Program-made: the position numbers and the translations under genes | Notes under the pieces: generated by a model | Databases searched by the model: none | Seen by the model: the letters and a program-made list of their open reading frames with translations, nothing else | Told to the model about the DNA's origin: nothing | Part shown: positions 6,208 to 11,292 of the stretch, one piece after another | Position numbering within the stretch: the stretch's first letter is position 1 | Layout: each line of letters starts with the position of its first letter | DNA from: Cellulomonas sp. | GTDB lineage: Bacteria > Actinomycetota > Actinomycetes > Actinomycetales > Cellulomonadaceae | Assembly: GCF_035634735.1 (NCBI RefSeq) | Contig: NZ_DASQCJ010000002.1 | Coordinates: 5,337 to 69,336 of the forward strand | Reading direction: 5' to 3' | Length of the DNA: 64,000 bases

Positions 6208-8205
6208 GTGCCGGCGGCGCGTCGCCCCGGGAGGCAGCGGGACGACGGGGTGAGGCGTGTGAGGTCGGTGCGGGTCGCAGGGGGTCGGGGAGCCGCGCGG
6301 CGCGGGGTCGCGGTCGGCGTCGTGCTCGCGCTGGTCGGCGTGCTCGCCGCGTGCTCGGGCGGGGGCGACGACCGGCAGCGGACCGCCGACGCCCTCGCCG
6401 ACGCCCTCGCGTCGGGCGACTTCGCGGACGTCCCCCTGGACGGCGCCACCGCCGCCGAGGCGGGCGAGGCGCGCACCGCCGCCTACGCGGCCCTCGACCC
6501 GTGGCAGCCCGAGGTGGCGGCCGGTGACGTCGTGGCCGCGGCGGACGACGACGCGGCGGCGTCGGTCGAGCTGACCTTCACCTGGGACGTCGGCAGCAGC
6601 GCCGCGGCGTGGACGTACACCACGCACGCGAACCTGGCGAAGGTGGACGACGAGTGGCGGGCCCGCTGGTCGACGATGCTGCTGGCGCCGGACCTGGCGG
6701 CCGGCGAGACGCTCCAGGTGCACCGGGTGCAGGCCGAGCGCGCGGACGTCCTCGGCGCCGGGGACGCGGTGCTGGTGGAGTCCCGGCCGGTGTTCCGGAT
6801 CGGCATCGACAAGACCCGGATCCCGGCGGAGCAGGCGGACGGGGCGGCGCGCGAGCTCGCGGCGGCCCTCGGCCTGGACGCCGAGGCCTACGCGGCCCAG
6901 GTCGCGGCGGCAGGCGAGAAGGCGTTCGTCGAGGCGATCGTCGTGCGCGCGGACGACCCGGCGTACGACCGCGGCGCGCTCGCGGTGCTGCCGGGCGTGA
7001 ACATGATCGAGACCGCGCTGCCGCTGGCGCCGAACCGCGCCTTCGCCCGCCCGGTGCTCGGCACGGTCGGCCAGGCGACGGCGGAGGTCGTCGAGGACTC
7101 GGACGGCGCGGTCGTCGCCGGCGACCTGGCGGGCCTGAGCGGCCTGCAGGCGCAGTTCGACGCGCAGCTGCGCGGCGAGCCCGGGCTGACGGTGGTCGCG
7201 ACGGCCGGCGGCGCGCAGGAGCGGCAGCTGTTCCACGTGGAACCGCAGGTGGGGGAGCCGCTGCGCACGACCATCGACCCGGCGGTGCAGCAGGCCGCCG
7301 AGGACCTCGTCGCCACGGTCACCGGCAGCGCGAGCGCGATCGTCGCGATCCGGCCGTCCACCGGCGACGTCCTCGCGGCGGCGAGCGGGCCGGGCGGCGG
7401 CGGCATGTCGACGGCCACGCTCGGCCTGTACGCCCCCGGGTCGACGTTCAAGGTCGCGTCGTCGCTCGCGCTGCTGCGCGCGGGGCTGACCCCGGACAGC
7501 ACCGTCACCTGCCCGGAGACCGCCACCGTGGACGGCCGGTCGTTCCAGAACTACCCGGGGTACCCGGCCGACGCGCTCGGCGACATCACGCTGCGCACCG
7601 CGGTCGCCGAGTCGTGCAACACCGCGTTCCTCACCGCGGCGGGCACCGCGCCGCAGGAGGCGCTGGCCGACGCCGCGGCCTCGCTCGGCCTGGTCGCCGG
7701 CGCGGACCTCGGCTTCGCGGCGACGCTCGGCGAGGTGCCGGCCGAGGCGACCGGCGGCACCGACCACGCCGCGTCGATGATCGGCCAGGCCCGGGTGCAG
7801 GCGACGCCGCTCGGCATGGCGACGGTCGCGGCCTCGGTGGCCGCGGGCGCGCGGGTCACCCCGCGGCTGCTGCTCGGCACCGCGGGGGAGACCGCCACCC
7901 CGGCGCCGGACCCGGCGCAGCCGCTGACCACCGGCGAGGCCGACGCGCTGCGCTCGATGATGCGGGCCGTCGTGACCGAGGGCGGTGGCGACTTCCTGCA
8001 GGACGTGCCGGGCCCCGAGGTGATCGCGAAGTCCGGCACGGCGCAGTACGGGTCGGGCGACGACCTGCAGAACCACGCGTGGATGATCGCGGCGCAGGGT
8101 GACCTCGCGGTCGCGGTGTTCGTCGAGACCGGCGACTTCGGCTCGACGACGTCGGGCCCGCTCCTCGAGGCGTTCCTCCGCGCGGTGGCGGTGCCGGCGG
8201 CCTGA
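6208..8205 (+). CDS. Penicillin-binding transpeptidase lipoprotein with NTF2-like N-terminal domain
   Basis: Lipobox LAAC; SxxK PGSTFK, SxN ESCN, KSG triad AKSGTA. A TAGGCT -10 at 6198-6203 precedes GTG 6208 (alternative start 6250). Confidence 0.9.
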   Translation: MPAARRPGRQRDDGVRRVRSVRVAGGRGAARRGVAVGVVLALVGVLAACSGGGDDRQRTADALADALASGDFADVPLDGATAAEAGEARTAAYAALDPWQPEVAAGDVVAAADDDAAASVELTFTWDVGSSAAAWTYTTHANLAKVDDEWRARWSTMLLAPDLAAGETLQVHRVQAERADVLGAGDAVLVESRPVFRIGIDKTRIPAEQADGAARELAAALGLDAEAYAAQVAAAGEKAFVEAIVVRADDPAYDRGALAVLPGVNMIETALPLAPNRAFARPVLGTVGQATAEVVEDSDGAVVAGDLAGLSGLQAQFDAQLRGEPGLTVVATAGGAQERQLFHVEPQVGEPLRTTIDPAVQQAAEDLVATVTGSASAIVAIRPSTGDVLAAASGPGGGGMSTATLGLYAPGSTFKVASSLALLRAGLTPDSTVTCPETATVDGRSFQNYPGYPADALGDITLRTAVAESCNTAFLTAAGTAPQEALADAAASLGLVAGADLGFAATLGEVPAEATGGTDHAASMIGQARVQATPLGMATVAASVAAGARVTPRLLLGTAGETATPAPDPAQPLTTGEADALRSMMRAVVTEGGGDFLQDVPGPEVIAKSGTAQYGSGDDLQNHAWMIAAQGDLAVAVFVETGDFGSTTSGPLLEAFLRAVAVPAA

Positions 8206-8374
8206 TCCGGGCCCTGACCTGCGGGTCCACGGGAGCGACGCGGCCGGCGCGCGCCGACCCCGTCGCCGGTGCGTTTTGTCCGCTATGGCCCGAGTGGGTG
8301 AAATGGGTGTTCTGGGATGAAGTTTCCCGTCCGCCCCCTTCCGCTGCGCCCGGCGCCGGGCCTACAGTCGGGCT

Positions 8375-8452
8375 GTCAGCGACAAGGGCAAACCCTCCGC
8401 GAGGAGGGGACGCAAAGCCACGGGACCCCCGCAGGTCAGCCGGGCTGCCGAA
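8375..8452 (+). ncRNA. c-di-GMP-I (GEMM) riboswitch
   Basis: AGGGCAAACC-ctcc-GCGA-ggag-GGGACGCAAAGCC-acgggaccc...GTCAGCCGGGCTGCCGAA matches the class I consensus including the GNRA tetraloop; TACAGT -10 at 8363-8368. Confidence 0.9.
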
Positions 8453-8465
8453 CGAAGGATCTCCC

Positions 8466-8636
8466 ATGGAACAGCGCGGCTTCTTCGAGCCGGCCGAGCG
8501 CGACCGCTCGGACCTCCGCTCCGACGTGACGGGGCGCAGCGCGACCCGCCTCTCGTCCTGGTCCCGCATCGCGGCGACCCTCGCGACGCACGGCGACCTG
8601 GTCCCCGCGCAGCGCGAGTGCACCTCCGCCTCCTGA
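8466..8636 (+). CDS. 56-aa hypothetical small protein downstream of the riboswitch
   Basis: GAAGGA RBS then ATG GAA CAG CGC; GC-rich third positions; the only ORF between the riboswitch and the convergent gene. Confidence 0.65.
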   Translation: MEQRGFFEPAERDRSDLRSDVTGRSATRLSSWSRIAATLATHGDLVPAQRECTSAS

Positions 8637-8724
8637 CCGCACGCCCCCCGGGCGCCTGCGCCGGGCGCCCGTCGGCGTGCCCGGGCCCGGGCGCCCGCGC
8701 CCGGCGTGCCGGCCGCGGCCCGCG

Positions 8725-11292
8725 TCAGAGCTCGCCGACGCGCTGCATGTAGCGCATCGCGGCCCAGCCGACCGGGATGCGCAGCCAGTACGTGAGGACG
8801 CGGAACAGCACGGCGACCGAGGTCGCGACGCCGGGGTTCACGCCGATCACCGTGAGCGCGCCCGCGAGCGCGATCTCGGTCGTCCCGATGCCGCCCGGCG
8901 TCGGGGCGATCGAGCCGGCCGTGTTGCCCGCCAGGTAGACGATCGCGACCTGCACCAGCGACAGGTGCTGGCCGAACGCCAGCAGGCACACCTCGAATGC
9001 GAGGATGTAGCCGAACGTCGTGATGAGGTTGCCCGCGAGGCCGACCGCGAGCCGGAACGGCTGCCCGACCACCTCGATGAGCCGCGGCCAGGTCTGCTGC
9101 ACGGTCGGCAGCGTCTTCGCGGCCACCCACTGCCGCACCTTCGGGATCAGCATCGCGGCGCCGATCATCGCCGCGAGCACGCCGACCACCACGACGACGG
9201 TCGGGGACACCGTGAACCGCTCGAGCTGGTTCGTGCCGGACGCGACCGACAGCACCAGCAGCATCGGCAGCGTCACGACGAAGTGCGACACCTGGACCAG
9301 CGCGACGGTGGCCGTCGCCAGCGACGCGGAGGTGCCGCGGCGGGTGAGCAGCCGGAGGTTGATCGCCGCCGGGCCGATGCCGGCCGGCGCGGCCAGCGCC
9401 ACGAACGTCGACGCCGACTGCGCGACCGTCGCGCGCCACAGCGACAGCTTCACGGGGGAGAACGCGACCAGCGACAGCGCCGCCCCGAACAGCGTCGCCA
9501 TGCCGAGCAGGAACGCCAGCACGCTCAGCCGCCAGTCCGTCGTCGACAGCGCGCTGAGGATGGTCTGCAGGTTGATCGACGTCAGCAGGATGATGACGGC
9601 GGCGGTGGTGAGCAGGATGGTCAGCACGGCGCGCGCGCCGAACCGGACCAGCTGCACCGGCTCGACGTCGGCCTCGGGCAGCCGCGCCACCAGCGCGGAC
9701 CGGAGCTCGGCGAGCACCTCCTTGTGCGCGCGCAGCTCCTCGCGGGTGCGGCGGGGGAGGGTGATGGTCTGGAGCAGCGGGCCGATCGCGGCGATGTCGC
9801 CCTCCGGCAGCACCGCGACGGCCGACTCCAGGGCGCGGGCGGGCCCCACGCGGAGCGCGAGCAGCGCGACCATCTGCGTCCGGTCCATGCGCTGCGCGAG
9901 CTCCGAGGAGGCGACGTCGCCCTGGTCCCAGCCGACCAGCCAGACCGTGGGGTCGTCCGGGCCGTCGGCGACCAGGATCACGTCGCTGGTCAGCGCGCGG
10001 TGCGCGAGCCCCGCCTCGTGCGCCGTGCCGAGCTGGCCCCAGATCGCGCGGAGCACGTCGTCCGTGATGGCCTCGGGGTCGAGCTCGGCGAGCGACGTGG
10101 CCGCCGGCACGGGGTCCTGGACCAGCAGCATCGACGAGTCGGCCTCCGCGATCCCGCGCAGCGCGGGGTTGCGGACGCCCGCGGCGGTCGCGGTGTACGA
10201 CAGCAGGGCGGCGCGCTCGGCGGCCTGGCGCAGCGAGACGACCGACCGGCCGTCCAGGCCGCGCAGCCGCAGCGAGCGCCAGAACCGGCTGAGGAAGCCG
10301 ATCACCTGGCGGTCGCCGTCGAGCACGAGCACGTCGAGCTCCCGGCCGTCCTCGGTGACCATCTCGTAGGCGCGGTGCTCGGCGTACCGGACGGCCGCGC
10401 GGGCACCGGCGCTGGCGGGGACGGCGGGGGTGCCGGGCCGCGCCCCCAGCCCCGCGCGGCGGTGGTCGGCGTCGTCCGCCGCGTCGTCGTCCTCGTCGGG
10501 CACCCGGACCAGCACCCGCGGCTGCCAGCCCGCCCGTCGCACGCCCGCGACGAGGCTGGCGCCGTAGGCGCGCTCCGAGCGGACGCCCGACACGTACCGC
10601 ACGGCGAGGCCGGACGCGCGCCCCAGCAGCAGCGCGACGGCGACGCCCGGCAGCGACGCGCCCGCCGTGATGACCATGACGCCGACCGCGACCCAGACCA
10701 GGTTCCACGACCAGGAGACGGTCCGCCGGCGGCTGCGCGGGCCGGTCGCGGTGAGCAGGCCCGCGATCAGCGCGAGGTACTCGGGGATGGACAGCGTCAG
10801 CTGGCCGTTGAGGCGCACCGACAGGCCCGCGACCAGCTGGTCCGACCCCAGGTGGTCGACGAGCCAGGCGACGCCCGCCGCGGCGAGCACCGCGACGATC
10901 GCGGCGATGGAGGCCTCGACCATCTGCCGGCCCAGCCGGCGCAGGGCGAGCTCCGCCAGCACGGCGATGGGCACGAGGTAGGTGACGACGGTCTCGAGCA
11001 GCGTGACCGGCACGACGAGGATCTGCCGGAGCAGCGAGGCGAAGCCCTGCACGTCCTCCGCGACGCCGGACGTGGTGTTGTGCGCGTAGGTCGCCAGCGC
11101 CATGACGGCGACGGCACCGAGCAGGCTGAGCACGACGCCGAGCAGGTCGCTCGGGTGGTGCACCCGCACCGCCGGGGTGTCGAGCACCTGGGGGCGGCCG
11201 AGCCCGTCGAGCGGCACCGGTGTGCGCTCGGCCGCGGCGGGCCCGTCGGGTCGACCGGGCGCCGCCGGCGCGCTGGTCGAGGCGTCGGGCAT
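8725..11292 (-). CDS. Lysylphosphatidylglycerol-synthase TM (flippase-like) domain protein with central kinase-like domain
   Basis: C-terminal SIAPTPGGIGTTE and FRVLTYWLRIPVGW motifs; N-terminal TM bundle; soluble middle region with AHRAL. Confidence 0.8.
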   Translation of the reverse strand: MPDASTSAPAAPGRPDGPAAAERTPVPLDGLGRPQVLDTPAVRVHHPSDLLGVVLSLLGAVAVMALATYAHNTTSGVAEDVQGFASLLRQILVVPVTLLETVVTYLVPIAVLAELALRRLGRQMVEASIAAIVAVLAAAGVAWLVDHLGSDQLVAGLSVRLNGQLTLSIPEYLALIAGLLTATGPRSRRRTVSWSWNLVWVAVGVMVITAGASLPGVAVALLLGRASGLAVRYVSGVRSERAYGASLVAGVRRAGWQPRVLVRVPDEDDDAADDADHRRAGLGARPGTPAVPASAGARAAVRYAEHRAYEMVTEDGRELDVLVLDGDRQVIGFLSRFWRSLRLRGLDGRSVVSLRQAAERAALLSYTATAAGVRNPALRGIAEADSSMLLVQDPVPAATSLAELDPEAITDDVLRAIWGQLGTAHEAGLAHRALTSDVILVADGPDDPTVWLVGWDQGDVASSELAQRMDRTQMVALLALRVGPARALESAVAVLPEGDIAAIGPLLQTITLPRRTREELRAHKEVLAELRSALVARLPEADVEPVQLVRFGARAVLTILLTTAAVIILLTSINLQTILSALSTTDWRLSVLAFLLGMATLFGAALSLVAFSPVKLSLWRATVAQSASTFVALAAPAGIGPAAINLRLLTRRGTSASLATATVALVQVSHFVVTLPMLLVLSVASGTNQLERFTVSPTVVVVVGVLAAMIGAAMLIPKVRQWVAAKTLPTVQQTWPRLIEVVGQPFRLAVGLAGNLITTFGYILAFEVCLLAFGQHLSLVQVAIVYLAGNTAGSIAPTPGGIGTTEIALAGALTVIGVNPGVATSVAVLFRVLTYWLRIPVGWAAMRYMQRVGEL

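Follow-up and report, generated by a model that had tools for sequence, protein, structure and literature searches.

A putative c-di-GMP-I riboswitch dedicated to a microprotein gene conserved in Cellulomonas

The locus described here was analyzed within a 64-kb stretch of Cellulomonas DNA (64,000 nucleotides), which is referred to below as the window. It lies between a penicillin-binding protein gene and a convergent gene for an MprF-like membrane protein, and its features are listed below in the order of their positions.

Ending at 8205: the upstream gene, encoding a class B penicillin-binding protein with MecA_N, PBP_dimer, and Transpeptidase domains
8339-8344, forward strand: a -35-like hexamer, TTCCGC, conserved as CTTCC[GA] and located 18 nt 5' of the -10 hexamer in all related loci aligned
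8363-8368, forward strand: a -10 hexamer, TACAGT, conserved as TAnnGT followed by C in all related loci
G8375, forward strand: the predicted transcription start, 7 nt past the -10 hexamer (7-9 nt in relatives) and the first base of an invariant GUCAGCG
8378-8453, forward strand: a class I c-di-GMP aptamer, recognized by cmscan and by pairing counts
8379-8381 with 8449-8453, forward strand: helix P1 of the aptamer
8388-8413, forward strand: helix P2 of the aptamer, with a GCGA loop
8416-8446, forward strand: helix P3 of the aptamer
G8387, A8414, and C8448, forward strand: the equivalents of the ligand-contact bases G20, A47, and C92, assigned by alignment to the model
8454-8459, forward strand: a Shine-Dalgarno (SD) sequence, GAAGGA, abutting the 3' strand of P1 and lying 6 nt 5' of the ATG
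8466-8636, forward strand: the microprotein gene, 56 aa and a stop codon, MEQRGFFEPAERDRSDLRSDVTGRSATRLSSWSRIAATLATHGDLVPAQRECTSAS, recognized by its family, dN/dS, and invariant residues
8639-8680, forward strand: a G+C-rich hairpin after the stop codon, with arms 8639-8645/8674-8680 and 8649-8656/8664-8671 and without a U tract
8725-11292, reverse strand: the convergent MprF-like gene, 855 aa, encoding a membrane protein whose C-terminal domain is LPG_synthase_TM/flippase-like

The presence of a structured RNA at this locus was examined by Infernal cmscan with the Rfam 15 models. Only one RNA in the 64-kb window scored above its gathering threshold, at 8378-8453 on the forward strand. The best model for this segment was c-di-GMP-I-GGC (RF03167; score 68.5 bits, gathering threshold 59, E 4.3e-14, model positions 1-80 of 80), and another model of the same clan (CL00126) likewise scored above its own gathering threshold. 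The full-length alignment to RF03167 and its E-value place the match far beyond chance. An earlier note on this DNA had proposed a full class I c-di-GMP aptamer at 8375-8452, with an Infernal search as the check; the search confirmed the aptamer and its location, whereas the ends were corrected by Rfam to 8378-8453. The three preceding nucleotides, 8375-8377 (GUC), probably extend P1 by pairing with 8454-8455 (C8377-G8454 and U8376-A8455).

An alignment of 14 distinct aptamers was used to examine the secondary structure. The P1/P2/P3 structure was paired in 99% of 294 cells, as compared with 24-47% in slid controls. Three pairs, in P2 and P3, had changed on both sides, mostly between paralogues, and the covariation was drawn mainly from a paralogue, the aptamer being nearly invariant among orthologues. 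Since most of the pairs never vary, the covariance-model score is the main structural support. In L010 and several distant loci, the junction was 1 nt shorter.

The three bases of the ligand site were located by alignment to RF03167, in which G8387, A8414, and C8448 occupy model positions 10, 37, and 75, respectively. Their counterparts in the Vc2 aptamer, G20, A47, and C92, contact c-di-GMP (PMC4744006). The second and third bases stand 27 and 65 model positions from the first in RF03167 and 27 and 72 nt from it in Vc2, a difference that lies in the variable-length loop of P3. The aptamer of the window has the canonical G/A/C triad of c-di-GMP-I RNAs, and the G within AGGGC that the earlier note had taken as the G20 equivalent is indeed G8387.

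The association between the aptamer and the microprotein gene was conserved in all related loci scanned with Rfam (21/21), the aptamer being positioned 12-20 nt 5' of the start codon even where the encoded protein was only 30-45% identical to that of the window. The aptamer (76 nt) was 100% identical to that of the window in most of the 10 close loci that were compared, and the exact Rfam score of the window was obtained in 8 of 12 close loci. In these same loci, the ORF was 75-93% identical and the upstream spacer 51-72% identical, with a synonymous divergence of the ORF from the window of 0.16-0.57.

The region 5' of the aptamer was compared in the leader alignment. The -10 hexamer, which the earlier note had also read as TACAGT, was present in every locus at the same distance as TACAGT, TAATGT, TAGAGT, or TAGTGT. 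A scan for E. coli-type consensus promoters gave no match here, as expected for a high-G+C actinobacterium. The promoter region (8338-8375, forward strand) was unusually well conserved throughout the genus. Because the spacing between the -10 hexamer and GUCAGCG is conserved in the leader alignment, transcription likely starts at G8375, so that the RNA would begin with P1. The region is also covered by Logan contigs from soil or ant metagenomes or metatranscriptomes, which carry no strand or transcript ends and may include DNA; a paralogous copy of the aptamer causes their assembly to end within it.

On the 3' side of the aptamer, the sequence (A)AGGA was found 0-5 nt past the P1 3' strand CCGAAC in all loci of the leader alignment. 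Both this SD sequence and the ATG were conserved, and the spacer of 6-9 nt between them was unconstrained in sequence. The ATG of the window is at 8466, 13 nt past the end of the aptamer. The ribosome-binding site and start codon had been placed about 14 nt past the aptamer by the earlier note; the site itself held, at 8454-8459, with the start codon being at 8466 rather than 8467. A consensus terminator scan detected no terminator-like site between the aptamer and the ATG.

We then considered whether 8466-8636, which translates exactly to the 56-aa peptide first proposed, is a true gene. G or C ended 55 of the 56 codons of the window ORF, and the GC3 of the orthologues was 0.91-0.98. In a comparison of 12 genome loci and the window, the median dN/dS was 0.28 (78 pairs, pairwise Nei-Gojobori), indels occurred in multiples of three only, and the variable sites were distributed over the three codon positions as 21/17/38, with an excess at the third. 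Conservation and dN/dS, which had been suggested as a check of the peptide, indicated purifying selection. Further, the invariant C-terminal motif was encoded by synonymously varying codons, suggesting that the constraint acts on the protein and not on the RNA. Judged by these patterns of substitution, 8466-8636 is a genuine protein-coding gene.

A longer ORF from a GTG at 8298 (112 aa), which would extend across the aptamer, was rejected because this stretch is a conserved RNA and five orthologues have no in-frame start 5' of the ATG. Mechanically called ORFs at 8317-8529 and 8298-8636, both on the forward strand, cross the aptamer (...KEGTQSHGT...). In at least two database records, P0048 and P0092, gene callers had stretched the N-terminus over the riboswitch to give 82-92 aa, an annotation artefact.

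The distribution of the microprotein was examined by sequence searches. An initial search found 25 full-length relatives with 69-93% identity, and a profile search of 1.8 billion representatives, with another profile search after it, extended the family to 97 sequence clusters of 46-63 aa. All named members came from Cellulomonas, and several genomes already carry the protein as a "hypothetical protein". The ORF had been described as an unannotated orphan, a description that does not fit this genus-wide family. No match to the microprotein was found in Pfam, NCBIfam, or PADLOC, and no significant sequence match in the PDB, the best having an E-value of 0.19. The residues M1, R4, E8, R28, W32, R34, A36, P47, and Q49 were invariant across the deep family, and the conserved motifs were M[DE]QRG at the N-terminus and VPxQRE[CYH] at the C-terminus. 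AlphaFold2 with the family alignment predicted a single helix at residues 14-42, basic and amphipathic and carrying R-x3-W-x-R-x-A, in a low-confidence model (pLDDT 66). No hydrophobic span was found in the microprotein. The microprotein is soluble and specific to Cellulomonas, and it probably acts by binding a larger partner; this role is suggested by its form, that of a small, soluble protein whose termini are conserved and whose basic helix carries invariant Arg and Trp residues.

Most members of the family end in VPAQRE[YH]A[GA]AA (e.g., P0027, P0028, P0030, P0049, P0053, P0063, and P0085), and the clade of the window ends in QRECTSAS instead (C-terminal segment of the window, 8604-8633). 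The SsrA tag of M. tuberculosis ends in ...QRDYALAA, AADSHQRDYALAA (PMC4416901). As a lead only, the SsrA-like C-terminus of the family may be a built-in degron for ClpXP. A RiPP precursor was considered on account of the Cys/Ser/Thr-rich C-terminus and was rejected, since most family members have Tyr or His in place of the Cys and genes for modification enzymes are absent from the neighborhood.

The boundaries of the transcription unit were also examined. The hairpin at 8639-8680 is likely a terminator common to the microprotein gene and the convergent gene. The consensus terminator scan was negative at this site, since the hairpin lacks a U tract. A strong hairpin occurred at the same site in most orthologous loci, with a U tail in L023. 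The promoter at P1, the lack of an intervening terminator, and the hairpin past the stop codon indicate that the riboswitch and the microprotein gene are a monocistronic unit. A functional link to the upstream penicillin-binding protein gene was rejected, because this neighbor is replaced in more distant species. The next gene downstream is convergent, as the earlier note had it, and is the MprF-like gene; the central part of its product weakly matched small kinases (Bud32 and Kdo kinase, E about 0.006). The same note had called the small ORF the sole target of the riboswitch, which is true of this genome, but some relatives have a further co-directional gene beyond the strong hairpin. In several Cellulomonas species, a gene of this kind encodes about 125 aa, matches SHOCT or PLDc_N weakly, and lies past the hairpin and before the MprF-like gene (L014:3373-3756, L021:4329-4706, and L023:4269-4649); it is missing from the window.

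Our reading of these data is that the locus is a self-contained c-di-GMP output module consisting of a promoter, an aptamer, and a microprotein gene under translational control, with c-di-GMP favored as an OFF signal, and we give this reading a probability of roughly 0.7. Its parts differ in strength. It is very probable that a functional c-di-GMP riboswitch is joined here to a real microprotein gene. Control at the level of translation is somewhat less secure, although still the better supported choice: the SD sequence is flush with P1, no terminator precedes the ATG, and the layout is monocistronic. Translational control had been proposed before from the proximity of the ribosome-binding site, and the layout agrees with it, there being no room for a terminator before the ATG. 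For the direction of the switch, OFF has about an even chance.

The mechanism that we propose is as follows. The conserved promoter would start the RNA at or beside the first base of P1, and the 3' strand of P1 would lead directly into the SD sequence of the 56-codon gene, whose message would be ended by the hairpin past the stop codon. Binding of c-di-GMP would close P1 and lock the compact aptamer next to the site of ribosome binding, and the first A of the SD sequence may even be part of the extended P1. A rigid aptamer flush with the SD sequence would be expected to lower binding of the 30S subunit, so that ligand binding would set the amount of the microprotein at translation initiation.

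The leader and 60 nt of coding sequence from 13 orthologues were folded with RNAfold, and no conserved fold sequestering the SD sequence was found. The minimum-energy fold differed in each of the 13, and the SD sequence was mostly unpaired in the free ensemble. The one ground for favoring OFF is that no conserved anti-SD sequence would hold the site closed without the ligand. Two candidates for such an element were rejected. In the fold of the window itself, the 5' strand of P3 pairs with the SD sequence and AUG, and this pairing needs a non-conserved spacer, UCUCCC. The other candidate was a set of pyrimidine runs located between the -10 hexamer and P1; these are complementary to the SD sequence in just two loci, L016 and L027, and are probably located 5' of the transcript start.

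The strongest competing explanation accepts the module but reverses its sign, with c-di-GMP raising the output of the microprotein. One conjectured route is that closed P1 would bury the 5' terminus of the mRNA and shield it from 5'-end-dependent RNases, which agrees with the transcript being predicted to begin, in every locus, with the first base of P1. Vc2 is reported to control RNA stability (bioRxiv 10.1101/617340). Alternatively, the SD sequence might be presented in a favorable single-stranded context, and it is unpaired in the ligand-bound secondary structure; moreover, both ON and OFF switches are known among class I c-di-GMP riboswitches. However, no conserved anti-SD sequence or other OFF-state element was found that the ligand could relieve. 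We consider the opposite sign unlikely, although it has the best prospects among the competing explanations.

A different output was considered next, in which the riboswitch would mainly drive antisense transcription into the MprF-like gene and the ORF would be secondary. The MprF-like gene was the convergent downstream neighbor in every locus with enough flank. In L003-L008, its stop codon and that of the microprotein gene were only 7-17 nt apart, so that the two transcripts must overlap, and a survey found c-di-GMP riboswitches to be over-represented in antisense arrangements (PMC9943018). Against this, the protein encoded by the ORF is under purifying selection, the stop codon of the ORF is followed by strong hairpins in the window and most loci, other genes intervene between the ORF and the MprF-like gene in L014, L020, L021, and L023, and the platform contains no transcriptional element. 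An antisense output is quite improbable.

The identity of the ligand was also questioned, because the window and most relatives scored highest with RF03167, the model of the GGC variant (60-73 bits). The GGC variant was reportedly defined by Weinberg et al. in 2017. To judge from the RF03167 consensus, "GGC" refers to the bases at positions 20, 47, and 92. In this consensus, ACGCGAAgCc, model position 37 is a conserved G; the corresponding base of the window is A8414, ACGCAAAGCC. By score, the window RNA falls within RF03167 (68.5 against 59 bits), whereas the G replacing A47 that marks the variant is lacking; an A was found at this position in all 21 of the 21 related loci scanned and in the paralogue loci L025 and L027. 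Since A, and not G, occupies the A47 position, the RNA of the window is canonical c-di-GMP-I despite its top model, and the orthologues L016 and L020 were matched best by canonical RF01051 (62 bits, gathering threshold 35). A 3',3'-cGAMP sensor would be the other form of this alternative. Four orthologues have an A at the G20 position (L009:3023, L011:1956, L012:3921, and L020:3919), as in the cGAMP-sensing GEMM-Ib RNAs, and a G20-to-A change makes Vc2 bispecific (PMC6140456), but the window itself has G8387 there, with canonical G/A/C at positions 20/47/92. A ligand other than c-di-GMP is thus even less probable for the window than an antisense output. The G/A polymorphism at position 20 among the orthologues could reflect the move of an actinobacterial riboswitch to cGAMP or to recognition of both ligands. 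For annotation, a top match to RF03167 should be taken to indicate altered ligand specificity only once position 47 has been inspected.

Finally, it is hardly credible that the ORF is untranslated and merely part of a riboswitch-controlled non-coding RNA, because, although its product has no recognized domain, the dN/dS of 0.28, the 21/17/38 distribution of variable sites, the in-frame indels, the conserved SD sequence and ATG, and a frame kept open for 46-63 codons in 97 clusters all speak for translation.

The aptamer has a paralogue in this genome. In the genome run X2, in which the window itself was matched at 100%, another contig matched 8378-8428 with six differences, and the flanks of this second copy recurred in soil metagenome contigs (L027:3530-3844 and L025:26-100). 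The paralogous c-di-GMP-I aptamer scored 73 bits, with A at position 47, and was followed by AGGAG, an ATG, and a gene for a 74-aa BldC-family regulator (NF033787; 101 bits, cutoff 77). It has the same flush layout of P1, SD sequence, and ATG, and a promoter hexamer, TATAGT, at the same spacing. A literature search found no paper combining BldC with a c-di-GMP riboswitch. Together, the paralogue and the present locus suggest that Cellulomonas links c-di-GMP to small regulators through RNA. It is conceivable, if doubtful, that the microprotein is a genus-specific c-di-GMP effector, a short-lived regulatory adaptor acting together with the BldC-linked second riboswitch; its level would follow the riboswitch, and its turnover by ClpXP is suggested by the SsrA-like ending of most family members. 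If it were true, Cellulomonas would route c-di-GMP via RNA sensors onto two small regulators.

The c-di-GMP biology of Actinobacteria is known mainly through the Streptomyces proteins BldD and RsiG/WhiG. To our knowledge, c-di-GMP riboswitches have hardly been studied in this phylum, and our literature search found no paper relevantly linking Cellulomonas with such a riboswitch. As a genetic handle the locus is very clean: a single promoter and a single aptamer serve a single 56-codon gene, an arrangement conserved genus-wide. The switch belongs to a known class; what is new is a Cellulomonas example dedicated to a genus-conserved microprotein.

Among known systems, the RNA of the window shares with Vc2 of Vibrio cholerae (GEMM-I, RF01051) an aptamer of three helices, in which P2 carries a GNRA loop and P3 the receptor for it, together with the contact bases G20, A47, and C92; both RNAs occupy a 5' UTR that lacks an intrinsic terminator. 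It differs from GEMM-I RNAs in its high-G+C actinobacterial host, in a transcript that seemingly starts at P1, and in an SD sequence that follows P1 without a spacer and has no recognizable anti-SD partner. Its target is also a microprotein and not a motility, adhesion, or competence gene. In overall sequence, it is very near the consensus of the RF03167 variant but has A for G at model position 37. The GEMM-Ib class (Geobacter Gs1761) is approached by the four orthologues with A at the G20 position, whereas the window has G there; natural A20 RNAs can be bispecific (PMC6140456).

The closest counterpart of the whole arrangement is the CD1980.2 family of C. difficile, 58-aa proteins encoded behind class I c-di-GMP riboswitches (bioRxiv 10.64898/2026.06.10.731418). 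These proteins are membrane-associated, occur as five to seven paralogues, are controlled by premature termination of transcription, and promote sporulation (same preprint). In both cases, a dedicated riboswitch precedes the gene for a lineage-restricted protein of about 56-58 aa that has no known domain and was partly missed by annotation. In contrast, the Cellulomonas protein has no hydrophobic segment, is apparently single-copy, is joined to a translational platform, and belongs to another phylum. The two were compared by description, and no sequence relationship between them is expected. The Cellulomonas locus would thus stand beside C. difficile as a second, unrelated case of a class I c-di-GMP riboswitch dedicated to a lineage-specific microprotein.
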